A program made the position numbers and the translations under genes. The notes under the pieces are model-generated. The model was not told the DNA's origin and made no database searches. It saw only the letters and a program-made list of their open reading frames with translations. Shown here piece by piece: positions 11,239-44,958 of a stretch of 64,000 bases of DNA. Position 1 is the first letter of the stretch. Every line of letters begins with the position of its first letter. This DNA is from a virus: IMG/VR virus record IMGVR_UViG_3300021077_000115, positions 174,064-238,063 of that record. One strand, written 5' to 3'.

Positions 11239-11662
11239 CCCTTGACATTCTTGGAAGCTTAGTGCACCTTTACAACCTTCGAGCACAGCAGATTCATGGC
11301 TGGCATCTGTGTCTGTTTGTGCTCAATTAATTTATCCTGACTAATTTCATCAGCCTTAATAATTCCAGGTCGAGAAACGTAAGCGTCAGGGCATAATTCA
11401 GCAGATAGATAACGCGGCAACAAAAACCGATAAATAGGATAATCCAGTGACTACTCTCAAGCAGCATAAAAACCACTTACATATTAGCCTGATTCAGGTT
11501 GATATAGTGGTATGCGTCCGCCCAGAGTGGTTGCAAGATCGCTTTTATAATCTACCTGAAAAGGATCTCTGCCGCAGTACTAAGACTTAATGTTCTAACA
11601 CATAGAAGTCAAAGGAAGCCGGCAGAGCGAAAGCAACGCCGGCTTCGGTCGTTTAATAGTTC

Positions 11663-11710
11663 ATGGGTTCTGGTGAGTGATTAAGGGTTCGAATCCCTTT
11701 GGCCCAACCA
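11663..11710 (+). ncRNA. armless tRNA-like minihelix (acceptor + T-arm only), encoded CCA
   Basis: TGGGTTC..AAGGG TTCGAAT CCCTT TGGCCCA A CCA; no D or anticodon arm; preceded by a 9-bp hairpin GAAGCCGGC/GCCGGCTTC. Confidence 0.35.
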
Positions 11711-11761
11711 ATAATGAAGATGGTTATCATTTTCATTGTTCATTGACAATTGAGTACTTCT

Positions 11762-11846
11762 GGTGGCGCTAGCCTATTGGCGAGGGCAAGAGTTTGTAAA
11801 ACTCCCGGTTAATCCTGTGTTGGTTCAATTCCAACCGCCACCACCA
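11762..11846 (+). tRNA. tRNA-Tyr (GTA), type II, CCA encoded
   Basis: GGTGGCG/CGCCACC acceptor, anticodon loop TTGTAAA, long variable arm, T-arm GTTGG TTCAATT CCAAC, A73. Confidence 0.75.
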
Positions 11847-11892
11847 CCCTGCGCGGGCCCATCGTTAAAACGGATGAGCGCGGGGTTCTTAT

Positions 11893-11975
11893 GGAGTATC
11901 GCCGAAGTTGGAGGGTCGGAGCTGTCTGTAAAACAGTCGTCAAAAGCCTAATAGGTTCGAATCCTATATACTCCA
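11893..11975 (+). tRNA. tRNA-Tyr (GTA), second copy, type II
   Basis: GGAGTAT/ATACTCC acceptor, D CCGA/TCGG, anticodon loop CTGTAAA, T-arm ATAGG TTCGAAT CCTAT. Confidence 0.65.
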
Positions 11976-11996
11976 CGAATTGATATATGCCTTTGC

Positions 11997-12362
11997 ATGG
12001 CAAGAAGGATGAGTGAATATCGAAGGGCATATCTAAAATTTCAGGTATCTGAAACAAGACGCAAATTGAAGATAAAAGCCATTGAATACAAAGGCGGGAA
12101 ATGTGAAAATTGTGGCTATGATAAGTGCGTAAATTCCATGGCATTCCATCATATAGATCCTAGCCAAAAAGAATTTACAATATCTGGTGATTACAAATCG
12201 TTTGAGCGTATAAAACCAGAACTAGACAAAACAAAACTATTGTGTCATAATTGCCATGGGGAGTTGCACGACGCAGAAAATCAAAAGAAACTCGAAGTTG
12301 ATAGAGTCGCTTTTGAGCAGATGGTTCGAGAACACAGATCAACAAAATCCATTCCAGGATAG
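11997..12362 (+). CDS. HNH homing endonuclease
   Basis: CENCGY...AFHHIDP...LLCHNCH HNH motif; ends TAG 12360-12362, overlapping the 5' end of tRNA-Asn. Confidence 0.7.
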   Translation: MARRMSEYRRAYLKFQVSETRRKLKIKAIEYKGGKCENCGYDKCVNSMAFHHIDPSQKEFTISGDYKSFERIKPELDKTKLLCHNCHGELHDAENQKKLEVDRVAFEQMVREHRSTKSIPG

Positions 12363-12426
12363 CTCAGTTGGTAGTAGCGCTTGTCTGTTAAACAAGGGGT
12401 CGCAAGTTCGAGCCTTGCTCCTGGAG
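12353..12426 (+). tRNA. tRNA-Asn (GTT)
   Basis: TCCAGGA/TCCTGGA acceptor, anticodon stem CTTGT/ACAAG, loop CTGTTAA, T-arm GCAAG TTCGAGC CTTGC. Confidence 0.75.
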
Positions 12427-12434
12427 CCTGGCGA

Positions 12435-12520
12435 CGAATGATCGATCAATACAATTGAGATACGCCGTGAAGCCTTAAGTTGGCTTACGTAACGGTCTTT
12501 GTTGACCGATCGATCATTCG
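12435..12520. repeat. long inverted repeat (13-bp perfect arms CGAATGATCGATC, about 60-nt loop containing a second hairpin) between tRNA-Asn and tRNA-Pro
   Basis: cgaatgatcgatc at 12435-12447 and its reverse complement gatcgatcattcg at 12508-12520; contains tandem GATC. Confidence 0.6.
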
Positions 12521-12528
12521 AGGCCTAT

Positions 12529-12602
12529 CAGAATGTGGGAAAGCCTGGTAATCCGCCTCATTTGGGATGAGGAGATCGTGAGTTCAACTCTCACCATTTT
12601 GA
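12529..12602 (+). tRNA. tRNA-Pro (TGG)
   Basis: CAGAATG/CATTTTG acceptor (one G.U), anticodon stem CCTCA/TGAGG, loop TTTGGGA, T-arm GTGAG TTCAACT CTCAC. Confidence 0.7.
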
Positions 12603-12603
12603 C

Positions 12604-12678
12604 CGGAGTGTAGCTCAGTTTGTTTAGAGCATCTGGCCTGGGACCAGAGGGTCAGAGGTTAAAATCCTCTCACTCCGA
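12604..12678 (+). tRNA. tRNA-Pro (TGG)-like with C33
   Basis: CGGAGTG/CACTCCG acceptor, canonical D-arm GCTC/GAGC, anticodon stem TCTGG/CCAGA, loop CCTGGGA (C at position 33), T-loop TTAAAAT. Confidence 0.55.
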
Positions 12679-12989
12679 CTAATTTACTAAATGGAATATT
12701 TCACTACGAGCCAATTTATGGACAGGATAAACTTGATTCAATTCAAAATAACGATCATAGAAAGTTCCAGGCATGCTTAGAACGCGGAATAGAGCTTGTT
12801 ATAGTTGACTCCAGTTCACTGAAATACTTTAAACCACAAAATGCAGAAAAATATTTCACAATAATCAAAAGCATATTATTTACTAAAACTATCTAGGTGT
12901 ACGATAGTGATAATCGGCCTGTTTCGGGAACAGGAAATCGTCTGTTTGATTCAGATCACCTAGACCAATGGTTATCATAGCATCATATT

Positions 12990-13679
12990 ATGGCCCCTCA
13001 AAACAAACTTCCGCCAAGGCCAATAAAGCCAAACTCTAAGAGCTATGATGACTTAGCTGCGGTTTCTGCTATGGACGCTGCCGAAGCTAGGCTACGCGCA
13101 GCAATGCATCTTGCGGAAGATGAGGCCAAGAGAGCGAATGAAGAGGAAAGAAAAAACGAAGAATTGAGAAGTGTATTGGACACGATGACAATGAAAGCGG
13201 TGCAGCCACCGGCTCCAATCCAAGTTACAGCTTCAATCATTCCGGCAGCTCCCGATGGAAAACCAATTTCTGTATCGCCGCAAGCTCTCACATTTCGTGG
13301 AAAGCATTGGAAATTTACAATCCCATTTACTTTGATAATATCATTACTTCCTTTAATTTGGGCTTTAGTATCTGACTACATGCAAATGAAAAGAGATTTC
13401 AAAACTCAGACAGATACTTTCGCTAGAATTACGGCCAGAGTCGAGGAAGTTAATGCTTACGCCCATGATGTTGGCAAATCAAATTATGAATTACGTGAAA
13501 CGGTAGCTCAACTTTCTGGATATTTATCTGGCGTTCTTCCGAAAGCTGGTGTAAAGGTTCCTGCTGTTGAACCTGGAGCGGCATATATAAATGTAGTTTC
13601 GGATCCGTTGCCTCTTGCAGAAATGAAGAAAAGACAGAAATCAATTATAGTTCATACGCCCGTGCCGGCACCTAAGTGA
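12990..13679 (+). CDS. hypothetical membrane protein with coiled coil
   Basis: 229 aa; one hydrophobic helix (FTLIISLLPLIWALV); stop TGA; T-run downstream. Confidence 0.45.
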   Translation: MAPQNKLPPRPIKPNSKSYDDLAAVSAMDAAEARLRAAMHLAEDEAKRANEEERKNEELRSVLDTMTMKAVQPPAPIQVTASIIPAAPDGKPISVSPQALTFRGKHWKFTIPFTLIISLLPLIWALVSDYMQMKRDFKTQTDTFARITARVEEVNAYAHDVGKSNYELRETVAQLSGYLSGVLPKAGVKVPAVEPGAAYINVVSDPLPLAEMKKRQKSIIVHTPVPAPK

Positions 13680-13754
13680 TACGCTATCGTGAACGAGCTT
13701 TTTGTTTTTTTTGGCGGCCAAAAGGTTATATATCAACAAATTCGTTATTTTTAT

Positions 13755-13839
13755 GCTGCTATGGTGGAACTGGTTTACACTTTCGATTTAAAATCGAACA
13801 TCTAGAAATAGATTGGGGGTTCGAATCCCTCTAGCAGCA
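13755..13839 (+). tRNA. tRNA-Leu (TAA), type II
   Basis: GCTGCTA/TAGCAGC acceptor, anticodon stem TTCGA/TCGAA, loop TTTAAAA, variable hairpin ATCTA-GAAA-TAGAT, T-arm GGGGG TTCGAAT CCCTC. Confidence 0.75.
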
Positions 13840-13879
13840 CTTGCGCACCTATCAAACAAACCTTACACGCAAAATATAT

Positions 13880-13970
13880 ACAGGTTCGAGTCCTGTCATC
13901 CCCACCGCGCTTTGGCGCAAATTCATGGGGATGTAGCCGAAATGGAACAGGCATTGGTATAAGGAACCAA
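13880..13970 (+). tRNA. candidate circularly permuted tRNA (unit A)
   Basis: 3' half 13880-13906: ACAGG TTCGAGT CCTGT CATCCCC A CC. Linker hairpin GCGCTTTGGCGC. 5' half 13927-13970: GGGGATG TA GCC..GGC A TTGGT ATAAGGA ACCAA. Acceptor strands co-vary perfectly. Leader TGCGCACCT (13842-13850) is complementary to trailer AGGTGCGCA (14002-14010). Confidence 0.4.
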
Positions 13971-14092
13971 GTTGAAAAACTGCAATTCACGGTTTATTAC
14001 TCAGGTGCGCAAAACCTTTATAGTGTTGAATTGGTTGAAAGCTAATTCATCACACCAAGTACATCTATCAAATCAACCTTACAAGCAATAAC

Positions 14093-14181
14093 GGTGGTTC
14101 GATTCCATCATTCCCCACCAGCGCTTCGGCGCAAACAATGGGGAATTAGCCTAATGGTAAGGCAAGTGACAGTAAATCACT
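14093..14181 (+). tRNA. candidate circularly permuted tRNA (unit B)
   Basis: 3' half 14093-14120: GGTGG TTCGATT CCATC ATTCCCC A CCA (full CCA encoded). Linker hairpin GCGCTTCGGCGC. 5' half 14140-14181: GGGGAAT TA GCC TAATGGTAA GGC A AGTGA CAGTAAA TCACT. Acceptor strands pair perfectly. Leader AAGTACATCT (14058-14067) pairs with trailer AGGTGTACTT (14203-14212), 10 bp with one G.U. Confidence 0.4.
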
Positions 14182-14217
14182 CGATAAATAGGTTAATTAC
14201 TCAGGTGTACTTACTAT

Positions 14218-14290
14218 GGTGGCGGAACACAAATGGCCAGTGGACACGTTGTGATCGTGTTATTTGCGGGTTCGAATCCCGTCCGTTACC
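14218..14290 (+). tRNA. tRNA-His (GTG) with G-1
   Basis: G-1 + GTGGCGG/CCGTTAC acceptor (two G.U), anticodon stem ACACG/CGTGT, loop TTGTGAT, T-arm GCGGG TTCGAAT CCCGT, C73. Confidence 0.7.
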
Positions 14291-14477
14291 CCGGCTCGAA
14301 GACATGCTCCAAACATGTTACCTTTGATCGAGCCTTGCATTTGATCAGCGATGACAAAGGAACCTGATTGAATGAATCCGATAGGCAGCCGGAGAGTAGT
14401 TATCGAAACAAAAAGCCGGTACGGAAGGGCCTGATAGATGGCAATTTATCAGACCCTGCTACTAACTAAGGATATTT

Positions 14478-14720
14478 ATGGAAGTAATTGAAACTGGTTT
14501 TAGTCATGCTCATGAAGCGGTAGCCTTTAAGATGGATAGTGGTCATGTTCTATTTTTTGGACCCAATGTCGTTCCCGGAACAGATGTACCAACATTTCGT
14601 TTTACATATGGTGGAAGTATACCAAAGGAAGAACGTGCCCAGATGATTAAATCAATCAAAAAATATTGTAAGGAAAAAGGATTCAGTGCTCCACTTGATT
14701 TCTTCAATTCCAAAGCATAA
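14478..14720 (+). CDS. hypothetical protein
   Basis: 80-aa ORF after the tRNA block. Confidence 0.35.
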   Translation: MEVIETGFSHAHEAVAFKMDSGHVLFFGPNVVPGTDVPTFRFTYGGSIPKEERAQMIKSIKKYCKEKGFSAPLDFFNSKA

Positions 14721-14878
14721 TAAAAGAGGAGTTATGAAATCTAAACCTAGAAATTACGTCATGGCACTCATTGCCAAGAATGACCCAACGCGATACCATA
14801 CTCGCTCGGTTGAAGCCGAGCATATAAAGCTACAACGTAACAGAGCACGCCGACGCGCTAAGGAGCGCAAGGAAATAT

Positions 14879-14949
14879 GTGAAGGTAGCTCAATGGTAGA
14901 GCAATCGGTTGGCCCGATCTATGGGAGTTCGATTCCCCCCTGCACACCA
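14879..14949 (+). tRNA. tRNA-like gene with canonical D-arm and T-arm but a 5-nt anticodon loop (probable pseudo-tRNA), CCA encoded
   Basis: GTGAAGG TA GCTC AATGGTA GAGC A ATCGG TTGGC CCGAT .. GGGAG TTCGATT CCCCC CTGCAC A CCA; lies inside the spurious ORF 14686-15069. Confidence 0.4.
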
Positions 14950-15079
14950 GGAGTTATTCCTCCGCCAAGAACTCTTCAAGACTCAGATCGTGATATAATA
15001 ATAGCGGAAGCAATTGCTTGGGATAGAGAATTTTCTAAGAGAGTTGCGAATATCGAGATATATAGATAATAGAGTATTT

Positions 15080-15153
15080 TGGGACATAGTACAAAGGTAG
15101 TACAACTGGCTCTGACCCAGCACATGGGAGTTCGATTCTCTCTGTCCCAACCA
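15080..15153 (+). tRNA. tRNA-Gln (CTG), CCA encoded
   Basis: TGGGACA/TGTCCCA acceptor, D GTAC/GTAC, anticodon loop CTCTGAC, T-arm GGGAG TTCGATT CTCTC. Confidence 0.7.
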
Positions 15154-15246
15154 TCTGGTTTATAGTGAGCCATATTGCGCAATATGGTCTGGTAAAATCC
15201 CGAGGGTATTGTGCGTTCGATTCGCACCACTGTAGATCAGTCTTAT

Positions 15247-15317
15247 TGGGGTATAGTACAATGGTAGTACAGCTGGCTTTGACCCAGTATACGGGAGTTC
15301 GATCCTCTCTACCCCAA
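15247..15317 (+). tRNA. tRNA-Gln (TTG)
   Basis: Paralog of the preceding gene: TGGGGTA/TACCCCA acceptor, anticodon loop CTTTGAC. Confidence 0.7.
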
Positions 15318-15330
15318 CTTCAAAATATAT

Positions 15331-15412
15331 GTCCAGCTGGTGGATTTGGTATACACAACAGTTTAAGAAGCTGTCGCCGTAAGGCATGCGAGTTCGACTC
15401 TCGCGCTGGACA
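15331..15412 (+). tRNA. tRNA-Leu, type II, anticodon read as AAG (A34, unusual)
   Basis: GTCCAGC/GCTGGAC acceptor, anticodon stem ACAGT/GCTGT, loop TTAAGAA, variable CGCCGTAAGGCAT, T-arm GCGAG TTCGACT CTCGC, A73. Confidence 0.55.
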
Positions 15413-15413
15413 C

Positions 15414-15470
15414 AAGATCCTTTCCCTGGCGGGGAGACGTCACAGTGGTTCGAATCCACAACTGGATCGA
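15414..15470 (+). ncRNA. tRNA-like minihelix (about 57 nt; acceptor-like stem + internal hairpin + T-arm)
   Basis: GATCC ... TCCC TGGC GGGGA ... GTGG TTCGAAT CCAC A ACTGGATC; no D or anticodon arms. Confidence 0.3.
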
Positions 15471-15501
15471 GATTTGTAATTGATAACTACTGATCATGGT
15501 A

Positions 15502-15553
15502 ATTCAATTTCAAATCGTTATGCTCAATTGGTTAATTACCGCTAGTTCAATTC
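15502..15553 (+). ncRNA. armless tRNA-like minihelix (7-bp acceptor + GGTTAATTACC hairpin + T-arm)
   Basis: TGCTCAA TT GGTTAATTACC GCTAG TTCAATT CTAGC G TTGAGCA; perfect 7-bp acceptor and 5-bp T-stem. Confidence 0.35.
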
Positions 15554-15648
15554 TAGCGTTGAGCACGAATTCACTTTCTACACAGATTAGGAATGTCCTA
15601 GTAAGCAAACCACCGAAAGGATGTTAGGCTTGGGAGTGCGTATGTTAT

Positions 15649-15721
15649 GCAGCAGTAGCTCAGTTGGTAGAGCAGTAGCCTGAAGAGTTACGTGTCGTCC
15701 GTTCGACCCGGACCTGCTGCA
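15649..15721 (+). tRNA. tRNA-Phe (GAA)
   Basis: GCAGCAG/CTGCTGC acceptor, D GCTC AGTTGGTA GAGC, anticodon loop CTGAAGA, T-arm GTCCG TTCGACC CGGAC. Confidence 0.8.
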
Positions 15722-15850
15722 CTAGAGGTTGGTTCTTGGTTCGATCCCAAGATAGATATGCAGTGCCGATAGGCCATTTCCCGCTCAATTAGTGTACAAT
15801 AATTCGAAGGAAAGTAATACTATTAGCTCATTGGTAGAGCAGCCTCGCAA

Positions 15851-15931
15851 TGGACTCTAAACTAATCTGGTGAAAGTGCTTGTCTGAAAAGCAAGAAAGC
15901 CCGGATCGTAACCGGGAGAGTCCACTTACAG
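15851..15931 (+). tRNA. tRNA-like gene with 9-nt anticodon loop and variant T-loop ATCGTAA (identity unresolved)
   Basis: GGACTCT/AGAGTCC perfect acceptor; T-arm CCCGG ATCGTAA CCGGG; internal stem CTTG/CAAG closes loop TCTGAAAAG; an orphan canonical D-arm TAGCTCATTGGTAGAGC and an orphan T-arm CTTGG TTCGATC CCAAG lie just upstream (15728-15843). Confidence 0.3.
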
Positions 15932-16096
15932 ATATGAATCCTAGAATAGCCAAACACCAAGTTGGCGTTTACAATTAGGATAACGGTTTCGTCTCTTCCG
16001 GACATACGGGAGACGGCAAACTCGTAGCGAGGCGAGGGCGATAATTCTGAGGTCGCAAAGTCTCAGAAACAACATCTAGATAATAAAACTTAATAT

Positions 16097-16170
16097 TGTA
16101 GAGTAGGCAAACAGGTAAGCCGGCGGATTGTTACTCCGTTGATTTGGGGGTTCGATGCCCTCCTCTACAG
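16097..16170 (+). tRNA. tRNA-Asn (GTT), second copy
   Basis: TGTAGAG/CTCTACA acceptor, anticodon stem GCGGA/TCCGT, loop TTGTTAC, T-arm GGGGG TTCGATG CCCTC. Confidence 0.65.
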
Positions 16171-16175
16171 CTAAT

Positions 16176-16247
16176 GGCCCCATACACTAATGGCTAGGTG
16201 GGCAGTCTTTCTAACTGCAGGTCCGAGTTCGAATCTCGGTGGGGTCA
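16176..16247 (+). tRNA. tRNA-Glu (TTC)-like with U37
   Basis: GGCCCCA/TGGGGTC acceptor, anticodon stem GCAGT/ACTGC, loop CTTTCTA, T-arm CCGAG TTCGAAT CTCGG. Confidence 0.5.
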
Positions 16248-16261
16248 CTGATAGAAAATAC

Positions 16262-16335
16262 GCCTCCATCGTCTAACGGTTTAGGATCGCTGTTTTTCAC
16301 ACAGCAAATGAGGAGTTCGATTCTCCCTGGAGGTA
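16262..16335 (+). tRNA. tRNA-Glu (TTC)
   Basis: GCCTCCA/TGGAGGT acceptor, Glu-type D region TCGTCTAACGG..., anticodon stem GCTGT/ACAGC, loop TTTTCAC. Confidence 0.7.
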
Positions 16336-16352
16336 CTGATATATAAGCCAAT

Positions 16353-16529
16353 ATGTGTATTGCAACAGAACAAATATGCGAAGCTTGTGGAGAGAAATAT
16401 TGGCAAGGAGATCTTCGGTTCGATGAATTACTGAAATGTGATGAGTGCCGAGGAATCAAACTACTTCCAGAGGAATATCCTCTAACAAGAGAACAATGGT
16501 TTGAAACTATAACCAAATTACAACGCTAA
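16353..16529 (+). CDS. small zinc-ribbon-like protein (58 aa), hypothetical
   Basis: MCIATEQICEACGEKYWQGDLRFDELLKCDECRGIKLL...; two CxxC pairs; below the 60-aa ORF-track cutoff; 3' end overlaps tRNA-Leu by 5 nt. Confidence 0.3.
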   Translation: MCIATEQICEACGEKYWQGDLRFDELLKCDECRGIKLLPEEYPLTREQWFETITKLQR

Positions 16530-16608
16530 CGTGGCGGAACTGGTATACGCAGCAGCTTCAGAGACTGCCGTCGATTTAGACATAAGGGTTCGATTCCCTT
16601 CGTTAGCA
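16525..16608 (+). tRNA. tRNA-Leu (CAG), type II
   Basis: GCTAACG/CGTTAGC acceptor, anticodon loop TTCAGAG, variable GTC-GATTTA-GAC, T-arm AAGGG TTCGATT CCCTT, A73. Confidence 0.7.
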
Positions 16609-16611
16609 CCT

Positions 16612-16684: not shown

Positions 16685-16733
16685 ATACTATTAAATACTG
16701 AATATTGTGATATAGGCTATGTTAGTTGCTTTT

Positions 16734-18115: not shown

Positions 18116-18122
18116 TATTTAT

Positions 18123-18201
18123 ACCTCCATAACTCAATTGGAATCAGAGTGTCTCTCTTCTAAAGAGAATGTTGTGGGTTCAACTCCCTCTGGAGGTACC
18201 A
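18123..18201 (+). tRNA. tRNA-Arg (TCT), CCA encoded
   Basis: ACCTCCA/TGGAGGT acceptor, D ACTC/GAGT, anticodon stem TCTCT/AGAGA, loop CTTCTAA, T-loop TTCAACT. Confidence 0.7.
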
Positions 18202-18238
18202 AGATATATGCAGTACAAACCGGAAGTACTAAATATAC

Positions 18239-18311
18239 GCCCCTTTAACTTAACGGATTAGAGTTCCTGCCTTCGAAGCAGGGAGTGGGAGTTCGATTCT
18301 CTCAAGGGGTA
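18239..18311 (+). tRNA. tRNA-Arg (TCG)
   Basis: GCCCCTT/AAGGGGT acceptor, anticodon stem CCTGC/GCAGG, loop CTTCGAA, T-arm GGGAG TTCGATT CTCTC. Confidence 0.7.
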
Positions 18312-18567
18312 CTAAAGGAAATATATGTCAGCAAATATGTTTATCAGACAAGCAGAACGAAACTCTTGTAGTGTAGGAAGTCTCAATAGAGGCTGGGACT
18401 GGCAAAATGGACACTGTAAATCTTTTGGGTTTAAGAAAGGTTTGCGTCGAGCAAGGCGCAGAGTCTCCAAGAAGATCATCGAAAGAGAATTAGCGGAGGC
18501 ATGATGGCAGAGAAAGCAAGAATGCAAGAAGCTGAAATGAATATCGGTAATAGAGGAAGTCTTCTAG

Positions 18568-18613
18568 AATGCGGTAATCGTAAGGGCTTGAATGCGGTAA
18601 TCGTAAGGGCTTG
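18568..18613 (+). repeat. perfect 23-bp tandem duplication (AATGCGGTAATCGTAAGGGCTTG x2) that frameshifts a small gene
   Basis: Without the duplication, the 18511-18721 ORF reads ...ECGNRKGLVENLKRGLRRARRRFSKKLIEIE..., paralogous to the upstream small ORF 18325-18504 (...KKGLRRARRRVSKKIIERE...). Confidence 0.75.
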
Positions 18614-18735
18614 GTTGAGAATCTGAAGCGCGGCTTGCGAAGGGCACGGCGCAGGTTTTCAAAGAAGCTGATTGAGATAGAGTTGAAAGATGTGGCACCA
18701 AAAGCACATCATAGATAATGGCCGCGTAACTCAAT

Positions 18736-18811
18736 GTTCCTGTAGCACAATGAATGGTGCAGTTTCCTCCTAAGAAAACGGTTGTGAGTTTAAATCTCAC
18801 CAGGAACGCCA
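18736..18811 (+). tRNA. tRNA-Arg (CCT), CCA encoded
   Basis: GTTCCTG/CAGGAAC acceptor, D GCAC/GTGC, anticodon loop CTCCTAA, T-arm GTGAG TTTAAAT CTCAC. Confidence 0.65.
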
Positions 18812-18865
18812 ATATAGTCGAGAAACTTAATTCGCAGTTCAATATGAGTGAATCATAGGAGAGCT

Positions 18866-19552
18866 GTGAATAAATGGACAAAAGAAGAATTCGAAGACGC
18901 AGTAGTAAAAAGCAAAAGCATCAAAGAAGTATTTCTACGTTTAGGAAATTCTACCACTGGATATAATACTTTCCACAGATACAAAAAGCTATATAAAATT
19001 GATACATCTCATTTATGTGGACAAATACTTGCTGGGAAAAACCAAAAGGGGCGAGTCCATCAACGGCCACTAAGCGAGATTTTAATCAAAGATGGCACTT
19101 CCCTAAAGATCAGATTGATTAAAGAAGGTCTGTTAGAAAACAAATGCAAAATCTGCGGTATAGACAGCTGGGATGGTAAACCATTGACTCTGCAATTAGA
19201 TCATATCAATGGAGATCACTGGGACCACAGAATAGAAAACCTTAGGATACTGTGTCCAAATTGTCATACTCAAACAGACACATATGCAAATAAAAAAGGA
19301 AGTAATAAGAAACCTCTAAGACGTGTAAATGCGGTTGTGATATAACATATCACTCAAGCACATGCAGAAAATGCCGGCAAGGAAATAAAAAGATCATTTG
19401 GCCAAGTTTAGAGTTCCTGGAAAAGTCCATACAAAACAGTAACTATTCATTTGTAGCCAAACAGCTTGGAGTGTCTGATAATGCTATAAGAAAACACCTA
19501 CAAAAATTAGGTGTTGAAGTTGTGAGCCCCTATAGTATAACGGAATAGAACA
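18866..19552 (+). pseudogene. HNH homing endonuclease with an apparent -1 frameshift at an A-run (about 19306-19312); zinc-ribbon and HTH tail continue in another frame into tRNA-Arg
   Basis: LDHINGDHWDHRIENLRILCPNCHTQTDTY in frame A ending TAA 19343-19345; frame B encodes CKCGCDITYHSSTCRKC ... SFVAKQLGVSDNAIRKHLQKLGV, matching the C-terminus of paralogs 21768-22391 and 22743-23519; one extra A in aataagaaacc would restore the frame. Confidence 0.55.
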
Positions 19553-19598
19553 AGACCCTACGAAGGTTGAGATACAGGTTCAAATCCTGTTGGGGGTA
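19526..19598 (+). tRNA. tRNA-Arg (ACG)
   Basis: GCCCCTA/TGGGGGT acceptor (two G.U), anticodon loop CTACGAA, T-arm ACAGG TTCAAAT CCTGT. Confidence 0.7.
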
Positions 19599-19599
19599 C

Positions 19600-19671
19600 T
19601 ATCCTGTAGCTCAATGGTAGAGTGCCTCCCCGACTAGGAGGAAGTCGTCAGTTCGAACCTGACCAGGATAA
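19600..19671 (+). tRNA. tRNA-Val (GAC)-like with C33 and U37
   Basis: TATCCTG/CAGGATA acceptor, D GCTC/GAGT, anticodon stem CCTCC/GGAGG, loop CCGACTA, T-arm GTCAG TTCGAAC CTGAC. Confidence 0.55.
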
Positions 19672-19678
19672 CTAACAT

Positions 19679-19749
19679 GGGCACTTAGTTAAATGGTAGA
19701 ACGCCTCTTTTACACGGAGAAGATAACAGTTCGATTCTGTTAGAGCCTA
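19679..19749 (+). tRNA. tRNA-Val (TAC)
   Basis: GGGCACT/AGAGCCT acceptor (one A.A mismatch), anticodon loop TTTACAC, T-arm AACAG TTCGATT CTGTT. Confidence 0.6.
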
Positions 19750-19761
19750 CAAAGATTTCAT

Positions 19762-19832
19762 GGGCCATTAAGTCAATGGAAGACTCGCAGACTTTTAATC
19801 TGTAAACATCAGTTCGATCCTGATATGGCCTA
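19762..19832 (+). tRNA. tRNA-Lys (TTT)
   Basis: GGGCCAT/ATGGCCT acceptor, D AGTC/GACT, anticodon stem GCAGA/TCTGT, loop CTTTTAA, T-arm ATCAG TTCGATC CTGAT. Confidence 0.75.
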
Positions 19833-19836
19833 CTAT

Positions 19837-19907
19837 AGAGGTATAAGTCAACGGTAGACTAGCGGTCTCTTAAACCGTCTATGAGAGTTCGATTCTCTCT
19901 ACCTCTA
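19837..19907 (+). tRNA. tRNA-Lys (CTT)
   Basis: AGAGGTA/TACCTCT acceptor, anticodon stem GCGGT/ACCGT, loop CTCTTAA, T-arm GAGAG TTCGATT CTCTC. Confidence 0.75.
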
Positions 19908-19926
19908 CTCATAAAAATGGTCGAGA

Positions 19927-19960
19927 AGTATCCATATATTATACTTAATATATGGATACT
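19927..19960. repeat. perfect 15-bp inverted repeat hairpin (AGTATCCATATATTA / TAATATATGGATACT) at the end of the tRNA block
   Basis: Seen directly; AT-rich stem; possible terminator or processing or protein-binding site. Confidence 0.6.
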
Positions 19961-20210
19961 AAATAGCAAATTACACAAATTAGGAATTGATTGGAGTCAT
20001 TATTCATTACCAACTCAATTGGTAAAATGACGGTAGTTCGTAAAGGAGATAGAATAATCAAAATAGGAGCGTCGGTCCGGTTAAGGCTCGTGAGGGTTTC
20101 CCTCCACACTCACGAAGTATCATCGTCCAATAACAACCCTGGATTCGTCCTGGACTTGTAGGATCAGGTTAAGTGCCGAGATGGAAGACAATCTCCCTAA
20201 TACTTCTTAT

Positions 20211-20282
20211 AGACCATTGGTGTAACGGTAACACAGCTGCCTCCAAAACAGTTAGATGCGGGTTCGAATCCTGTGTGGTCTG
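20211..20282 (+). tRNA. tRNA-Trp (CCA)
   Basis: AGACCAT/GTGGTCT acceptor, D GTGT/ACAC, anticodon loop CTCCAAA, T-arm GCGGG TTCGAAT CCTGT. Confidence 0.65.
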
Positions 20283-20579
20283 CAAGATAAATATGTAACC
20301 AAATACTCTTTGGTAAAACATAGATATATAACTAAACATGCTTACTAAAGAAGAACGCAAAGCAGAATTCTTAAGATTGATGGAAGTTACATCTGATTTA
20401 GAATGTACTTTCTTAGCTGGCAATCCAGATGGTATTAGTATATGCGCTTATTGTGATTGTTGGTGGCATGTTGGTGACATACCAAAACATACTTCAGGTT
20501 GTAATAGACCAAATCAGGATACGTGAGGTAACATGAATAACATACAAAAACTACAGTAAATCACAAAAGCAGAGATTGG

Positions 20580-20768
20580 TTGGATGATAGTAAAGAGAAT
20601 CTTGAGTTCTTGTGTCCAAATTGCCACAGTCAAACAGATGGATGGTGTGGTAGTAAATATGAAATTGAACTTTTTAGTGAAGTAGAACACTCAAGAAGAG
20701 CACGTGTAAGAAGACAATGTCAGCGTGGCGTAACGGCAGCCGCAGCAAGCTTAGAACTTGCTGAGTAA
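20580..20768 (+). pseudogene. HNH endonuclease remnant (C-terminal portion only) running into tRNA-Leu
   Basis: ENLEFLCPNCHSQTDGWCGS retains only the distal HNH motif; upstream half absent. Confidence 0.4.
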
Positions 20769-20800
20769 TACTCGTGGGGGTTCGACTCCCTCCGCTGACA
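20719..20800 (+). tRNA. tRNA-Leu (TAG), type II
   Basis: GTCAGCG/CGCTGAC acceptor, anticodon stem GCAAG/CTTGC, loop CTTAGAA, variable GAGTA-A-TACTC, T-arm GGGGG TTCGACT CCCTC. Confidence 0.75.
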
Positions 20801-20993
20801 CTATGATAACTTATCTATTAACAAAGATGTTTTATTTTCTATTCAGTGTTTGTGGACCTTTGCGTACAGCCGCTGGAACAGCAGAACGCAGATTGTATAA
20901 TGAACATCTTGGTGATATATGGGTATCAAAATATGATGTACAGATGCCAATAATATCGGAAGATGTTACTGAACCTGAATTAGATATAAAGTC

Positions 20994-21287
20994 ATGATGA
21001 CAGATTGTCCACTTTGTAGTCGAGAAGTTCCCCACCGGAGCGATCATCATTTGACTCCTCGCTCTCGTGGAGGGAAGGTTACACTTCCAATATGTTTAGA
21101 CTGTCATAAGTCAGTACATGCATTTTTCACAAACAAAGAATTGGAAGATAGATATAATACAGTTGATGCGCTTTTAGGGGACGAGAAGTTCGCCAAGCAC
21201 ATCAAATGGTTGAGTAAGCAAGACCCGAACAGGAGATATAGAACTGTAAGGGTTTCCGAAAAGAAACATCGAGGAAGAAGCGGATGA
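20994..21287 (+). CDS. small HNH-family endonuclease
   Basis: CPLCSREV...HHLTPRSRGG...CLDCHKSVH motif; ATGA overlap with downstream small ORF. Confidence 0.5.
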   Translation: MMTDCPLCSREVPHRSDHHLTPRSRGGKVTLPICLDCHKSVHAFFTNKELEDRYNTVDALLGDEKFAKHIKWLSKQDPNRRYRTVRVSEKKHRGRSG

Positions 21288-21466
21288 AAGTATACGAGTT
21301 AATTGAAAAGCTTTCGGAAATGCCGCAATTAGCAAATGTAAATATTGTGTTCGATACTGGTTTTGCGAGTAGAGATATTGAAAGCGTTTATATAGATTGG
21401 GAGAATGAATATCCTACTATATGTATAGATGAAGGTAAAATGTCTCGGATCGTCTCGGAGTGATAT

Positions 21467-21538
21467 GGGCCTGTCATATACGGGTTAGTATGCAATTCTT
21501 ATAAATTTGACAAGATGGTTCGACTCCATCCAGGCCTA
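21467..21538 (+). tRNA. tRNA-Ile (TAT) (AUA decoder) with shifted D-stem
   Basis: GGGCCTG/CAGGCCT acceptor, D CATA/TATG, anticodon stem CAATT/ATTTG (one mismatch), loop CTTATAA, T-arm GATGG TTCGACT CCATC. Confidence 0.55.
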
Positions 21539-21572
21539 CGCAATCTATCAATAACTTAGCAGATACATATTA

Positions 21573-21644
21573 CGGTCTATCATATAATGGTTAGTATGCA
21601 AGTCTGATACACTTGTCACGATGGTTCGAGTCCATCTAGACCGA
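21573..21644 (+). tRNA. tRNA-Ile (GAT)
   Basis: CGGTCTA/TAGACCG acceptor, same D-arm as preceding gene, anticodon stem CAAGT/ACTTG, loop CTGATAC, T-arm GATGG TTCGAGT CCATC. Confidence 0.7.
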
Positions 21645-21646
21645 CT

Positions 21647-21741
21647 GGGTAACGCGAAAAATAGTTCGGTTCTTGTCTTGTTCATGTGTGTTTCTTTCGT
21701 TTCTGGGTTCGTGACTTGTTGATTTGGTTTTCGCGTTACCC
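21647..21741. terminator. long hairpin (14-bp arms GGGTAACGCGAAAA / TTTTCGCGTTACCC, about 67-nt loop) followed by a T-run; probable bidirectional terminator
   Basis: Lies between the plus-strand tRNA-Ile pair and the 3' end of the minus-strand HNH gene. Confidence 0.5.
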
Positions 21742-21767
21742 TTTTCTTTGCCCCCATCTTCTAACGG

Positions 21768-22391
21768 CTAGGAGTGATTTAGAGTAGCTAAGTGACACTT
21801 TTTGCATCTATTAGCATCTGGAGATATTTTTCGGTTACACTGCTCGCAGCGATGGTGATTTACTTTACCCTTCCTACCAGAAAACGTAGGCGTCTGAGTA
21901 TGGCAATTGGGACATAATATCCTTAGATTTTCTAATCTGTTATCATCATGATCTCCGCTTATATGGTCTAGTTGCAACACTAACGGCTCTCCATTCCATT
22001 CATTACCTTGGCCGCATTTGAAGCATTTATCATCAAAAATATTGGAACTGATGAGCCGATCTTTCAATACTTGAGAATTTACCTTAATTCCATTTTGCAA
22101 ATACTCTGATATATCTTTTTTAGGACCAAACTTTCGGTTTCTGTTCGAGGCCAATCCCAACGTTATATGACCATAGCTGATTTCATCTTCAATCAATCTT
22201 CTCTTGAGGGTTTTGTAGTTTCCGCTTCCAATCCCGAAATGTTCTAGAATCTCAGCTAAACTCTTGCAGGCATTGACAATTTCTTGAAATTTTTCAGTAG
22301 TAGGTTTATATATTACACTAGTCTTTTTTCGGTTTACCATATAAGGACATATATCAATATACATAGATGTCCTTAGATAATTCGGCTCCAT
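21768..22391 (-). CDS. HNH homing endonuclease with C-terminal zinc ribbon
   Basis: LDHISGDHDDNRLENLRILCPNCHTQTPTF...RCEQCNRKISPDANRCKKCH. Confidence 0.7.
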   Translation of the reverse strand: MEPNYLRTSMYIDICPYMVNRKKTSVIYKPTTEKFQEIVNACKSLAEILEHFGIGSGNYKTLKRRLIEDEISYGHITLGLASNRNRKFGPKKDISEYLQNGIKVNSQVLKDRLISSNIFDDKCFKCGQGNEWNGEPLVLQLDHISGDHDDNRLENLRILCPNCHTQTPTFSGRKGKVNHHRCEQCNRKISPDANRCKKCHLATLNHS

Positions 22392-22454
22392 CTTCTAATG
22401 GCAGGATGACGCTCTCTCTAAGCGCCAATGCGAGTTCAAATCTCGCTGGAGTCA
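22383..22454 (+). tRNA. tRNA-like gene, anticodon read as CTC (Glu) with U37 and an 8-nt T-loop
   Basis: GGCTCCA/TGGAGTC acceptor, anticodon stem CGCT/AGCG, loop CTCTCTA, T-arm GCGAG TTCAAATT CTCGC (8-nt loop). Confidence 0.4.
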
Positions 22455-22455
22455 C

Positions 22456-22541
22456 TGCGGGAATGTAGTGCAAAGGCGGCACACGAGGCTCATAACCTCG
22501 TCCGAAAGGCGCGATAGGTTCGATTCCATCTCCCGCTACCA
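22456..22541 (+). tRNA. atypical tRNA with CAT anticodon (Met or Ile2-type), GNRA-hairpin insertion in the variable region, CCA encoded
   Basis: TGCGGGA/TCCCGCT acceptor (1-72 mismatch), anticodon stem CGAGG/CCTCG, loop CTCATAA, variable TCCGAAAGGCGC, imperfect T-stem. Confidence 0.4.
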
Positions 22542-22742
22542 AATGGAAACGTTCAGACCAGGCGTATATAGTTGGTCAAAGAAGTGTGCAACCAAAACAA
22601 GTAACCGAAAACGCGCTGAATGGTACTTGTATAAGAAGGAACATAAGTCGCATTACCATCAACGTATTCGGCAAATAGGAGATTCAGATTACCACTACGA
22701 TTTTGATGGAGACTACGATCTCTTTGGTTGGTATGATATTCA

Positions 22743-23519
22743 GTGTGGAGATCATTAGTATGTCGTGGAACCCAAAAGGCTAGGGGCCTGTCTGCAAAAC
22801 AGGTATTTGTGAGTTCGACACTCACCCACGACTCCAATATGGCAGCTAATTTAGGCACTAGAAAATCATGGACTGACGAGCAAATGTCAAAGGCAGTAGC
22901 TCAAGCACTTTCAATAGCCAGCACACTTAGGTTATTGAATATGTCACAAACTGGAGCTAATTATATAACAGTAAAAGATGCTATAAATCGACTAAGCCTA
23001 AACACTTCACATTGGACAGGGATTCATCATAGGAAGGGAAAGGCGTTAATTAATCCAAAGAAATCACTATCTGAATTATTGACTGAAAACTCACGAACAC
23101 AAACATCGCGTCTAAAACATCGACTCATAAAAGAAGGTCTGCTTACCAATCAATGCTCCGTATGTTGTCAAGAGCCTAGTTGGAAAGACAAGCCTCTGGT
23201 AATGGTGTTAGATCATATAAACGGAATAAATAATGATTTTAGATTTGAAAACCTAAGATTACTTTGCCCTAATTGCAACAGCCAGCAATCAACATTCGCT
23301 GGTAGGAACAATAAAAGTAAAAGAGGGCCAGGTCATTTTTGCAATAACTGCAATAGAAAATTAACAGCACTTAGAAAATCTGGTATGTGTAATGTTTGTA
23401 ACAATAAATCCAGATCAAAATCAAGCCAAGGTGATGGAATGGCAGACATGGTAGCCCCAAACACTACTGCCGCAAGGCGTGAGGGTTCGACTCCCTCTCT
23501 TGGCACTTATGATAATTAG
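22743..23519 (+). CDS. HNH homing endonuclease; 3' end reads through a tRNA-like element and stops at TAG in frame with the next ORF
   Basis: LDHINGINNDFRFENLRLLCPNCNSQQSTF + CNNCNRK...CNVCNN zinc ribbon; TAG 23517-23519, then gaa gta ATG 23526 in the same frame. Confidence 0.6.
   Translation: MWRSLVCRGTQKARGLSAKQVFVSSTLTHDSNMAANLGTRKSWTDEQMSKAVAQALSIASTLRLLNMSQTGANYITVKDAINRLSLNTSHWTGIHHRKGKALINPKKSLSELLTENSRTQTSRLKHRLIKEGLLTNQCSVCCQEPSWKDKPLVMVLDHINGINNDFRFENLRLLCPNCNSQQSTFAGRNNKSKRGPGHFCNNCNRKLTALRKSGMCNVCNNKSRSKSSQGDGMADMVAPNTTAARREGSTPSLGTYDN
23425..23505 (+). tRNA. tRNA-like element (type II shape, 9-nt anticodon loop CCCCAAACA) embedded in the 3' end of the HNH ORF
   Basis: GCCAAGG/TCTTGGC acceptor, D ATG/CAT, stem GGTAG/CTACT, variable hairpin GCC-GCAA-GGC, T-arm GAGGG TTCGACT CCCTC. 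Confidence 0.35.
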
Positions 23520-23525
23520 GAAGTA

Positions 23526-44956: not shown

Positions 44957-44958
44957 AC

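Follow-up and report, generated by a model that had tools for sequence, protein, structure and literature searches.

A phage tRNA island with HNH genes, conserved atypical tRNAs and putative permuted tRNA mimics

Composition of the tRNA island and its relatives

The window analyzed here is a stretch of 64,000 nucleotides of an IMG/VR virus record (IMGVR_UViG_3300021077_000115, positions 174,064 to 238,063), and it contains a dense array of tRNA genes at 11762..23506 on the + strand, which is interleaved with HNH endonuclease genes, tRNAs of atypical structure and two tRNA-like genes of circularly permuted order (B1 and B2). A large uncultured phage or phage-like element is the probable source of the region, which would form the major part of its tRNA island and provides a near-complete set of translation adaptors. 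A dense, HNH-invaded tRNA array is in itself a known kind of phage feature.

The tRNA genes were identified with ARAGORN, for which relaxed settings (including -ps80) were used beside the defaults, and with the Rfam tRNA model RF00005 (gathering score of 29 bits). With default settings, ARAGORN predicted 50 tRNA genes across the window, 36 of them within the main array and all of these on the + strand, and RF00005 gave 48 matches of 29-68 bits. When the relaxed settings were included, a total of 54 tRNAs representing all 20 amino acids was obtained, which bears out the figure of about 55 given in a preliminary description made from the sequence alone. That description had found no tRNA for Cys, which proved wrong: a tRNA-Cys(GCA) is present at 22762..22836 (+), called by ARAGORN and scored at 50.3 bits by Rfam in a permissive run. 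A permissive run also gave 39.1 bits for Leu-CAA at 23425, and Pro-CGG at 12893 was called by ARAGORN only. The main array holds five genes for Leu, four each for Pro and Arg, three for Glu, two each for Tyr, Asn, Gln, Phe, Val, Lys and Ile, and one each for His, Asp, Trp, Met and Cys; the 36th gene is a decayed His copy, which ARAGORN labelled Pro.

Further tRNA clusters of the same island were found at 43351..52883 (+) by ARAGORN and Rfam. They comprise Ala, Arg, Met, two further Ala and three Thr genes (43351-45455), four Gly genes (48220-48739) and four Ser genes (51297-52883; CGA at 51297, TGA at 51393, GGA at 52300 and GCT at 52797), all on the + strand. The Ser genes were called by relaxed ARAGORN only, and in whole-window runs all four were missed by default ARAGORN and by Rfam at gathering thresholds. 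In a small Rfam search, three Ser tRNAs scored 39, 36 and 33.6 bits, and Ser-GCT gave 30.4 bits with the tRNA-Sec model, below the cut-off of that model. In all four, C8 replaces the near-universal U8, and a 3-nt connector lies between the acceptor stem and the D-stem. Two listed open reading frames (ORFs; 51246-51782 and 52315-52836) overlap the Ser tRNAs and are probably spurious. Distant from the main clusters, two minus-strand tRNAs (Ala-CGC, 1234-1305; Pro-UGG, 60808-60882) lie close to the window ends.

The CCA end is encoded in 8 of 50 window tRNA genes, and an ORF with an HD domain (46805-47680) resembles the C-terminal part of the CCA-adding enzyme. Just upstream of the island, a strong hairpin resembling an intrinsic terminator, with a stem of 12 bp and a T run after it, is located at 11203..11231 (+); when comparable + strand terminators were looked for inside 11.3-23.9 kb, none was found. 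A promoter scan was uninformative (40 sites vs. 30 expected).

Relatives were recovered with a conserved FGE-sulfatase-like ORF inside the array (17252-18115, +) as the anchor. The array also contains a conserved, non-HNH ORF of 229 aa without a family match (12990..13679, +) and a conserved, likewise non-HNH DUF6794 ORF (16877-17197, +). The tRNA gene order of the window is repeated in six syntenic contigs, namely L001 (= L008, 62.7 kb), L009, L010, L011 (27 tRNAs in 9 kb), L012 and L014. Among these, the identity of the anchor protein is 62-76%; L006 and L007 are less closely related to the window. The remoter relatives of the anchor protein (L002-L004 and L015-L087) had no tRNA arrays and therefore gave no comparative information. 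The closest relatives of the window (G+C content of 43%) are IMG/VR viral contigs, and several window proteins match PHROG families. When the region was searched by megablast and blastn against 50,697 deposited phage records for close relatives, only short tRNA matches were obtained.

Atypical tRNAs and HNH genes

The loops of the tRNAs were read from the ARAGORN structures. A 7-nt anticodon loop with U33 and a purine at position 37 is present in all but 6 of the 54 tRNAs. C33 was found in Pro 12604 (CCUGGGA), Val 19600 (CCGACUA) and Ala 44807 (CCUGCAA), in agreement with the preliminary description (which placed the last at 44806), and additionally in Leu-CAA 23425 (CCCAAAC). U37 occurs in Glu 16176 and Glu 22384, both already listed (the latter at 22383), and also in Val 19600. 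The A34 reported for Leu-type tRNAs was recovered at Leu-AAG 15331, and the variant T-loops ATCGATA and ATCGTAA correspond to AUCGAUA in Asp 16734 and AUCGUAA in Phe 15852. T-loops without C56 are those of Pro 12604, Pro-CGG 12893, Arg-CCU 18736 and Thr-GGU 45384. The GNRA hairpins described in variable arms at 22456 and 48575 were also confirmed, as the variable regions of Met 22456 and Gly 48575 each contain a UCCGAAAGG hairpin; GNRA-type hairpins in extended variable regions occur in the Asn tRNAs of L001 and L011 as well. Likewise, the short anticodon loops reported near 14879 (5 nt) and 16612 (6 nt) were located at 14878, where G32 and C38 are able to pair in the minimum free energy (MFE) fold, and at 16614. 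Two other loops had been misread: the supposed 8-nt T-loop at 22383 is a 7-nt UUCAAAU loop on a 5-bp stem, and the supposed 9-nt anticodon loop at 15851 has 7 nt when the U-G closing pair is counted. The anticodon loop at 23425, likewise given as 9 nt, has 7 nt closed by a C-A mismatch. The list of anomalies was mostly accurate; its interpretation as debris is wrong for most of them, judging from the comparison with related contigs, in which the odd loops are conserved, some of them through compensatory changes.

Several of these genes were followed through the relatives. The gene of tRNA-Pro(UGG) with C33 (12604..12679, +; 63 bits with Rfam) carries the T-loop UUAAAAU, and its CCUGGGA loop recurs in the unrelated locus L236. 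For tRNA-Leu(AAG) with A34 (15331..15413, +), AAG is kept in L001, L009, L011 and L012. The gene of tRNA-Glu(UUC) with U37 (16176..16248, +; loop CUUUCUA) adjoins a canonical Glu(UUC) gene at 16262-16336; its ortholog in L012 has CCUUCAA (C33), and the canonical neighbor remains UUUUCAC. The ARAGORN-predicted tRNA-Asp(GUC) (16734..16805, +) has an A54 T-loop that is kept as AUCGAUA or AUCGUUA in all eight orthologs, with compensatory T-stem changes. The gene of tRNA-Val(GAC), called by ARAGORN, has both C33 and U37 (19600..19672, +; 73 nt) and is 100% identical in the window, L001, L011 and L014, with a single D-loop base difference in L012. The gene of tRNA-Glu(CUC) with U37 (22384..22455, +; loop CUCUCUA) is identical in L001, and in its L012 ortholog (73% identity) the stems differ and the U37 loop is unchanged; the same loop was also found in L331. 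The gene of tRNA-Leu(CAA) with C33 (23425..23506, +), which has a C31-A39 mismatch and lies within the 3′ end of an HNH ORF, is identical in L001. Val-GAC, Leu-CAA and Glu-CUC are identical between genomes whose backbone identity is 72-80%. Alleles differ at other positions of the array: the slot of tRNA-Met(CAU) with the variable-region hairpin (22456..22541, +; 31.4 bits, the weakest canonical call) is occupied by a different 79-nt allele in L001 and L012, and Leu-UAA has C33 in L009 vs. U33 in L011.

Positions 19 and 56 vary jointly. Pro-CGG (12893-12967) has A19-U56 in the window vs. G19-C56 in its L001 ortholog, and elsewhere in the window U19-A56 was found in Pro 12604-12679 and A19-U56 in Thr-GGU 45384-45455. 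These joint changes, together with the compensatory stem changes, indicate selection on folded, L-shaped molecules. In a background set of 1829 distinct tRNAs from unrelated phage-like loci, C33 occurs in 3.2% (58/1829), U37 in 0.9%, A54 in 1.0% and non-C56 in 1.1%, and C33 recurs in the same species (Pro-UGG, Ala-UGC, Val-GAC/UAC, Leu-CAA and Met). At 4/54, C33 is about twice as frequent in the window as in the background set, and it is a general trait of environmental phage tRNAs. The conservation pattern suggests that C33, U37, A34 in tRNA-Leu, the A54 and non-C56 T-loops and the GNRA hairpins are probably kept by selection and are not mainly products of decay. The atypical tRNAs appear mostly conserved and functional, and they might act as unconventional decoders. 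A natural C33 tRNA functions normally in yeast, where C33 is nearly neutral (PMC13492127); since natural C33 decoders are known, C33 lowers the claim that such tRNAs are typical and not the claim that they are functional.

Six HNH ORFs are interleaved with the array, and a seventh, matched by PHROG, lies at 45436-46143 (+). PHROG HNH families matched five of the ORFs (four in the region and that at 45436) with E values of 1e-21 to 1e-43, the Pfam matches (HNH, HNH_3) are close to or slightly under the cut-offs, and two short ORFs were assigned by Pfam. The translations show the motif LDHINGDH..N..LCPNCH. The first ORF (11997..12362, +; 121 aa; PHROG HNH E = 8e-25) has homologs of 46-48% identity in the same slot of L001 and L011. 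Between Arg-CCT and Arg-ACG lies an ORF of 165 aa (18848..19345, +; PHROG E = 3e-42; Pfam HNH). It is followed by a fragment of 62 aa with the C-terminal motif only, which overlaps tRNA-Leu(UAG) (20580..20768, +; Pfam HNH), and by a small HNH-like ORF of 97 aa (20994..21287, +; HNH/HNH_5 below the Pfam cut-offs), whose protein has 99% amino-acid identity in L001 and 89% in L012. On the opposite strand, an ORF of 207 aa (21768..22391, -; PHROG E = 3e-35; 99.5% amino-acid identity in L001) overlaps tRNA-Glu(CUC) by 8 nt at its start. The last ORF (22851..23519, +; 222 aa from ATG; PHROG E = 5e-43) reads through the entire tRNA-Leu(CAA) to its stop codon, and its C-terminal tail is probably incidental, because the family match stops at residue 190 of 222. 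HNH genes had been described as repeatedly ending inside the 5′ ends of tRNAs. This holds at 12353, where the final 10 nt of the first ORF lie within tRNA-Asn, and at 23425, where the ORF runs through the tRNA; at 19526 it does not, as the ORF stops 180 nt upstream, at 19345.

The HNH genes are mobile. At least six slots are occupied in one genome and empty in another. The Val-GAC/Val-UAC spacer is 860 nt with an HNH gene in L001 and 6 nt in the window, and the Lys/Lys spacer is 651 nt with an HNH gene in L001 and 3 nt in the window; conversely, the Arg-CCU/Arg-ACG spacer of the window holds an HNH gene and measures 714 nt, against 26 nt in L011, and the Ile-GAU/Glu-CUC spacer, filled in the window and L001, is an empty 105 nt in L012. 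Against the backbone nucleotide identity of 72-80% between the window and L001, high-identity blocks surround the shared HNH genes (20717-22460 at 94% and 23178-23763 at 92%), and tRNAs beside shared HNH genes are identical. Slot by slot, the tRNAs are 58-100% identical to their counterparts, and the closest relative varies between slots: Arg-CCU is 66% identical to L001 and 95-97% to L011 and L012, and Arg-UCU is 95% identical to L001 and 62% to L011. These changes of the nearest relative from slot to slot indicate that tRNA alleles are exchanged like cassettes. The 92-94% blocks are compatible with co-conversion, and HNH cleavage most likely promotes the allele exchange. Of the homing-driven shuffling proposed in the preliminary description, the mobility (filled and empty sites) and the mosaic array were borne out, and the view of the atypical features as products of decay was not.

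True decay or one-off variation is suggested at three loci only. The tRNA at 14878..14948 (+) occupies the slot of a second His(GUG) copy of L001, L009 and L011, and its loop is UUGGC vs. UUGUGGC in these relatives, a 2-nt deletion that leaves an effective 5-nt loop. At 15160..15236 (+), a degenerate tRNA-like sequence, in which the T-arm is good but the anticodon arm poor, was reported by ARAGORN only at -ps80 and had no BLAST match in the relatives. The tRNA-like gene at 16614..16683 (+), with the 6-nt anticodon loop UAACAA, is well folded (MFE z = -4.5), and no counterpart was found in the relatives. None of the decayed loci adjoins an HNH gene in the window.

Permuted tRNA-like genes and other elements

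Several non-coding stretches of the array are better conserved than the coding backbone. Between tRNA-Leu(UAA) and tRNA-His lies B1 (13841..14011, +), a circularly permuted class-II tRNA-like gene with 94% identity in L001, L009 and L011; the preliminary description had missed both permuted genes, at 13841-14213. RNAalifold yields the permuted fold of B1 unprompted, and the fold agrees with the covariation and with a score of 99 bits against R1, a covariance model of the B elements. B1 consists, in order, of the 5′ strand of an outer helix, a T-arm (ACAGG UUCGAGU CCUGU), the 3′ acceptor strand CAUCCCC-A-CC, a linker hairpin (GCGC-UUUG-GCGC), the 5′ acceptor strand GGGGAUG, UA, a 3-bp D-arm, an anticodon-like 5-bp stem with the 7-nt loop AUAAGGA, a GAAA hairpin and the 3′ strand of the outer helix; the two ends are paired. 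In Rfam, B1 matched only tmRNA_permuted (RF04321) with 24 bits at model positions 36-95 (gathering score 47), a match confined to the T-arm, the acceptor and the spacer. B2 (14055..14213, +; R1 96 bits) has the 3′ acceptor strand AUUCCCC-A-CCA, the 5′ acceptor strand GGGGAAU and the anticodon-like loop CAGUAAA, with a GUA triplet and A33, and its orthologs are found in L006 and L331. Two permuted B copies are present in L006 and one in L007. The B1 triplet varies, being AAG in the window, UCG in L001, L009 and L011, and UAG and UGU in L006 and L007. The B elements are about 170 nt long and have a full 5-bp/7-nt anticodon-like arm, a GNRA variable hairpin, a G-C acceptor pair 3-70 and a YUAY-like motif (YUAC) immediately before the T-arm. 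Their set of tertiary-contact nucleotides is complete (U8, A14, G18, G19, T54, Psi55, C56 and A58).

Loci for the family were supplied by DNA pattern scans and then scored with R1. The first pattern gave mostly canonical tRNA-Val(UAC) genes, and of 77 new loci from the overly loose second one none proved to be a true member; only the third, specific pattern was useful. In all, at least about 25 B-type members were counted in the tRNA islands of other large phages. Members score 94-104 bits with R1, and ordinary tRNA-tRNA junctions at most 46 bits. Blastn and megablast of the B elements against the 50,697 phage records gave only short tRNA matches; a match in Burkholderia phage vB_BpP_HN02 (50% coverage; L340 2447-2620) was rejected, as the locus (PP079243.1, about 70736-70909) has mismatched acceptor pairs and consists of a class-II Tyr-GUA next to another canonical tRNA, neither of them annotated. 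Because this locus scored 47.6 bits with R1, scores below about 50 bits need inspection. Nearly all members are located within tRNA arrays. They occur on viral contigs of 78-437 kb, namely L122 (three), L101, L164, L158 (two), L161, L130, L091, L300 (two), L324 and L325, and on contigs binned into metagenome-assembled genomes (MAGs) of Lentisphaeria, Gemmatimonadota, Myxococcales and Methylobacter. On the unrelated 436-kb viral contig L101, the tRNA island, which carries a permuted element, also contains a group I intron (1948-2178; 77 bits) and an EF-Tu homolog (5359-6663; Pfam E = 1e-50); a weak tmRNA match (7850-7924; 30 bits, below the gathering score) was obtained as well.

In an alignment of eight sequences made with MAFFT, 99.5% of the cells pair, and compensatory changes were found in 15 of 24 pairs, among them 6 of the 7 acceptor pairs that bridge the linker. 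With 27 members, the paired cells amount to 98.7%, and covariation is seen in 20 of 24 pairs, the seven acceptor pairs across the linker all among them; none of 500 shuffles reached this result, and slid controls pair at 31-47%. The terminal two-part helix, an open helix of 15-25 bp with internal loops, has z < -2 in 22 of 27 members, and two motifs are conserved in it, YUACA(A/C)GCA ahead of the T-arm and ACUCGG on the 3′ side. Among 26 members, the hallmarks of tRNA ends are frequent: U-1 in 17, G+1 in 24, U8 in all 26 and A73 in 20, with N73-CC in 17 and N73-CCA in 8 (vs. 8/50 canonical window genes). Of the 20 members with 7-nt loops, 12 have A at position 33, five have U, two G and one C. 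The GUA triplet is enriched (6 of 20), and triplets vary even among close relatives; some members have 6- or 8-nt loops. No family for B1, B2 or element C (below) is present in Rfam 15, and in the literature searched, the coverage of which was incomplete, YrlA and tmRNA were the only permuted tRNA or tRNA-like genes found to be reported from phages or bacteria. On this sequence evidence, B1, B2 and their relatives are tRNA look-alikes of a circularly permuted type that has not been described before, and they recur in big phages.

Element C (15723..15851, +), a second permuted type, lies between two Phe tRNAs. In its RNAalifold structure, the ends pair (GAGGU/GCCUC) in the place of the anticodon stem, and a T-arm, a long closed acceptor-like arm and a D-arm are present. 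It is conserved in four relatives (L001, L009, L011 and L012), with five compensatory pairs, and had no match in Rfam. The orphan arm fragments reported for this part of the array therefore resolve into two cases: 15728-15843 belongs to one conserved permuted tRNA-like RNA, and 15160-15236 does look decayed. At the head of the array, a hairpin GAAGCCGGC..GCCGGCUUC with an inner GCGAAAGC (11615..11646, +; MFE -20.9 kcal/mol, z = -2.9) is nearly invariant in L001, L011 and the more distant L006 and L007. Three minihelices, previously placed at 11663, 15414 and 15502, fold as claimed. That at 11664..11710 (+) has an acceptor stem, a T-arm with a UUCGAAU loop and an encoded ACCA end in the MFE fold, and its T-stem shows a compensatory change (AAGGG/CCCUU here vs. 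GUGGG/CCCGC in L001 and L011). Those at 15416-15468 and 15521-15565 (+), each with a closing stem and a T-arm-like hairpin, had no match in the relatives and are window-specific. A non-coding spacer of 171 nt in the array (15926-16096, +; MFE -44.8 kcal/mol, z = -3.1) also had no match in the relatives.

Outside the array, a class-II tRNA of 91 nt with the anticodon CUA (36269-36359, +; 53 bits with Rfam), labelled 'Pyl' by ARAGORN, would read amber codons. Amber recoding within the window was rejected, as TAG terminates 6 of 45 confident ORFs and TAG read-through merges ORFs no more than that of other stop codons does; the tRNA could serve genes elsewhere in the genome. In L012, ARAGORN predicted a 69-nt tRNA with a UUA anticodon (869-937), an ochre reader between Asn and Glu that has no counterpart in the window. 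Among the protein genes, an ORF of 712 aa (31104-33242, +) matches Pfam MVP_shoulder (E = 9e-28) and a vault repeat, which is unusual for a phage-like element, and VWA-domain ORFs are located at 50041-51126 and 27368-28039 (-). An ORF of the 2H phosphoesterase/2′-5′ RNA ligase (LigT-like) type at 182-787 (+), with a weak Pfam Acb1 match and the PHROG label 'RNA ligase', could act in tRNA repair or anti-CBASS. Consecutive genes for a substrate-binding/OmpA-like protein, an ABC permease and an ABC ATPase lie at 4031-7209 (+), so that transporters are present on a phage-like contig.

Interpretation and comparison with known systems

Taken together, the region is probably a phage tRNA island with HNH genes as passengers, odd tRNAs maintained by selection and two-piece, non-decoding tRNA mimics. 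The array genes, which lie on one strand, would be transcribed as long precursors and cut by RNase P with 3′ trimming; because only 8 of 50 genes encode CCA, CCA would be added afterwards. The HNH genes would be selfish passengers inserted repeatedly in tRNA spacers, and their cutting, followed by repair, most likely promotes slot-wise exchange of tRNA alleles between related phages. The odd tRNAs most likely stay functional yet differ from those of the host at positions read by defence nucleases, by analogy with phage tRNAs whose anticodon-loop changes at nuclease recognition sites are proposed to allow escape from anticodon nucleases (PMC10264068). In tRNA-Glu, any change of position 37 abolishes cleavage by gamma-toxin, and C33 is without effect (PMC2275089).

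Folding of the B1 and B2 transcripts is predicted to give a full tRNA shape, with the linker joining the two strands of the acceptor stem. RNase P would cut before G+1, and the 3′ strand would be trimmed to N73-CC(A); the U-1, G+1, A73 and CCA hallmarks suggest such maturation by RNase P and CCA addition into two-piece RNAs. The product would be a CCA-ended tRNA mimic in two pieces, which the acceptor stem and a terminal helix of roughly 20 bp with conserved internal loops keep together. It is most likely non-decoding, since most members lack U33 and the 'anticodon' shows no conservation, and the favoured, more likely role is that of a Y-RNA-like scaffold or decoy that engages tRNA-binding proteins.

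Several points weigh against this interpretation. The proposed maturation of B1 and B2 is deduced from sequence hallmarks, and some members have very short linkers (6-10 nt) and may stay uncut. The 27-member alignment was fitted to the model and favours the structure, although the eight-sequence MAFFT alignment gave the same answer. The benefit of nuclease evasion is proposed by analogy, and strong conservation argues for function, not specifically for evasion; C33 could be merely tolerated, because it neither affects gamma-toxin cleavage (PMC2275089) nor is more than nearly neutral in yeast (PMC13492127). The loci at 14878, 15160 and 16614, and these three only, look like true decay or one-off variants. 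Finally, the window holds no capsid or terminase gene, and its phage identity rests on the IMG/VR relatives and a few PHROG matches.

Other explanations of the atypical RNAs were considered. That the atypical tRNAs, minihelices and orphan arms are chimeras or pseudogenes left by HNH cutting and shuffling is distinctly improbable: mobile HNH genes, the mosaic array, the HNH fragment at 20580-20768, the His copy with the 2-nt loop deletion and the two loci without counterparts agree with it, but the most deviant tRNAs are the most conserved, their odd loops persist through compensatory stem changes with 19 and 56 covarying, the supposed fragments are covarying structures conserved in distant phages, and no decayed locus adjoins an HNH gene. 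Sequencing or assembly errors, with indels producing the odd loops and mis-joins the permuted genes, have a probability close to nil; the 2-nt deletion at 14878 and the loop one base short at 16614 could be read in this way, but the same odd loops and permuted order occur in independent metagenomes from different samples, with compensatory substitutions. It is very unlikely that the island is a cellular 'tRNA array unit' of a bacterial chromosome or plasmid. The ABC-transporter, OmpA-like, transglycosylase and NAD-kinase-like genes of the window, the absence of capsid and terminase genes from it and the family members on contigs binned into bacterial MAGs would fit such an origin. However, phage contigs commonly end up in MAG bins, other members lie on 78-437 kb viral contigs, and the nearest relatives and several proteins point to viruses; moreover, a high density of small unknown ORFs, the HNH load and CCA-less tRNAs are typical of large phages.

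For the permuted elements, it is unlikely, although less so, that B1, B2 and element C are YrlA-type Y RNAs, in which case a Ro60/Rsr protein of the host, or from another part of the phage genome, would bind the terminal helix and the tRNA-like part would recruit, or protect against, exoribonucleases. YrlA (RF02553), a Y RNA known from both bacteria and phages, contains a permuted tRNA-like domain; in Mycobacterium smegmatis, RNase P cuts it and CCA is added in vivo (PMC4201824). The module order of the B and C elements is that of YrlA (variable region, T-arm, acceptor stem, D-arm, paired RNA ends), a YUAC motif precedes the T-arm, and the conserved internal-loop motifs of the terminal helix are suited to protein binding. 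Against this, the YrlA model (gathering score 69 bits) gave no match on B1, B2 or C at E up to 10 (383-nt search of the B region) and matched no member in seven other loci, and its only hits (23-35 bits) fell on tRNA-tRNA junctions; the Ro-binding motif GNCGAA(N)G is not on the 5′ strand; and no TROVE/Ro60 domain was found by Pfam in about 50 window ORFs (58-712 aa) or in ten large ORFs beside other members, the rest of the genomes being unseen. A 637-aa VWA protein beside the L158 member was rejected as a Ro60 link, as it has no PDB relative and no homolog near other members.

The possibility that B1, B2 and their roughly 25 relatives are permuted class-II tRNAs matured without splicing, by RNase P, 3′ trimming and CCA addition, into two-piece, CCA-ended and possibly aminoacylated molecules, which act as nuclease-proof tRNA-Tyr/Leu surrogates or as decoys for tRNA-targeting immunity, is entertained tentatively; if true, no permuted tRNA gene would have been known in a bacterial virus before them. 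That B1 and B2 are real two-piece decoding tRNAs, Leu-like and Tyr-like and the first permuted ones outside algae and archaea, perhaps serving to escape nucleases that recognise intact tRNA-Tyr or tRNA-Leu, is quite improbable. The complete tertiary-contact nucleotides and the typical G1-C72, A73 and CCA end would suit decoding, class-II amino-acid triplets occur in 10 of 20 seven-nt loops vs. a chance expectation of 22% (GUA in 6), and retron Eco7 targets tRNA-Tyr and phage tRNA-Tyr rescues infection (PMC11555353). However, only 5 of the 20 loops have U33, some members have loops of other lengths, the B1 triplet differs among close relatives, which would cause miscoding if the RNA were charged with Leu, and two canonical Tyr genes and Leu-AAG are already in the window.

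The island bears on a conflict in which phage tRNAs were recently recognised as counter-measures to tRNA-destroying bacterial immunity. A phage lineage keeps tRNAs that break the U33, purine-37, T54 and C56 rules under clear purifying selection, with the same breaks in unrelated phages, and these tRNAs are concrete candidates for learning which positions defence nucleases read. Standard tools under-count such genes, since neither the four Ser tRNAs nor any of the tRNA mimics were picked up by default ARAGORN and by Rfam at gathering thresholds. With the permuted RNAs, an uncommon gene organization is now seen in bacterial viruses too, and maturation into two-piece, CCA-ended RNAs, if true, would provide a splicing-free route to a permuted tRNA and a new player in the phage-host tRNA conflict.

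Free-standing homing endonuclease genes are present in the tRNA regions of other phages, as exemplified by the HNH genes of T5 and segB of T4. The island shares with these systems small nuclease ORFs amid tRNA genes, present or absent between relatives, and high-identity tracts near common copies, consistent with co-conversion. It differs in that one ORF reads through a whole tRNA and another lies on the opposite strand. Very large tRNA sets in huge phages were reportedly described by Al-Shayeb and colleagues in 2020. The islands of huge or jumbo phages and of cluster C1 mycobacteriophages likewise have dozens of clustered tRNAs on one strand that cover most or all amino acids, and anticodon-loop differences were proposed there to defeat host anticodon nucleases (PMC10264068). 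Unlike them, the island described here combines a complete 20-amino-acid set with departures at C33, U37, A54, non-C56 and C8 (Ser), with slot-wise allele shuffling and with permuted tRNA mimics, which are not reported in those descriptions.

Two-piece tmRNA (Rfam RF04321; Keiler et al. 2000 as cited in PMC3978253), the pieces of which stay unligated, has an order in common with the B elements: T-arm, 3′ acceptor strand with CCA, excised spacer and 5′ acceptor strand. In contrast to tmRNA, the B elements have a D-stem and an anticodon-like arm and lack pseudoknots, a tag reading frame and the G3-U70 alanine identity pair; no tmRNA was found in the window by ARAGORN. Permuted tRNA genes are known from red and green algae and from the archaeon Thermofilum pendens (PMC3978253, PMC3218864). 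As in the B elements, the 3′ half lies upstream of the 5′ half, and class-II tRNAs (Leu, Ser and Tyr) are over-represented among them, the B elements being class-II too. Those genes mature via a circular intermediate, a bulge-helix-bulge motif, splicing endonuclease and ligase, a machinery that bacteria lack (PMC3978253), and give one-piece tRNAs with U33, which is mostly absent in the B elements; no bulge-helix-bulge motif is visible at the B junction, which is a long open helix.

With YrlA, beyond the module order, the B elements share the tRNA tertiary nucleotides, and YrlA is found in tRNA-rich phages. Element C is the closest to the YrlA layout. YrlA lacks the full anticodon-like arm and the GNRA variable hairpin that the B elements keep; in the latter, the break therefore lies in the variable region and not in the anticodon arm.

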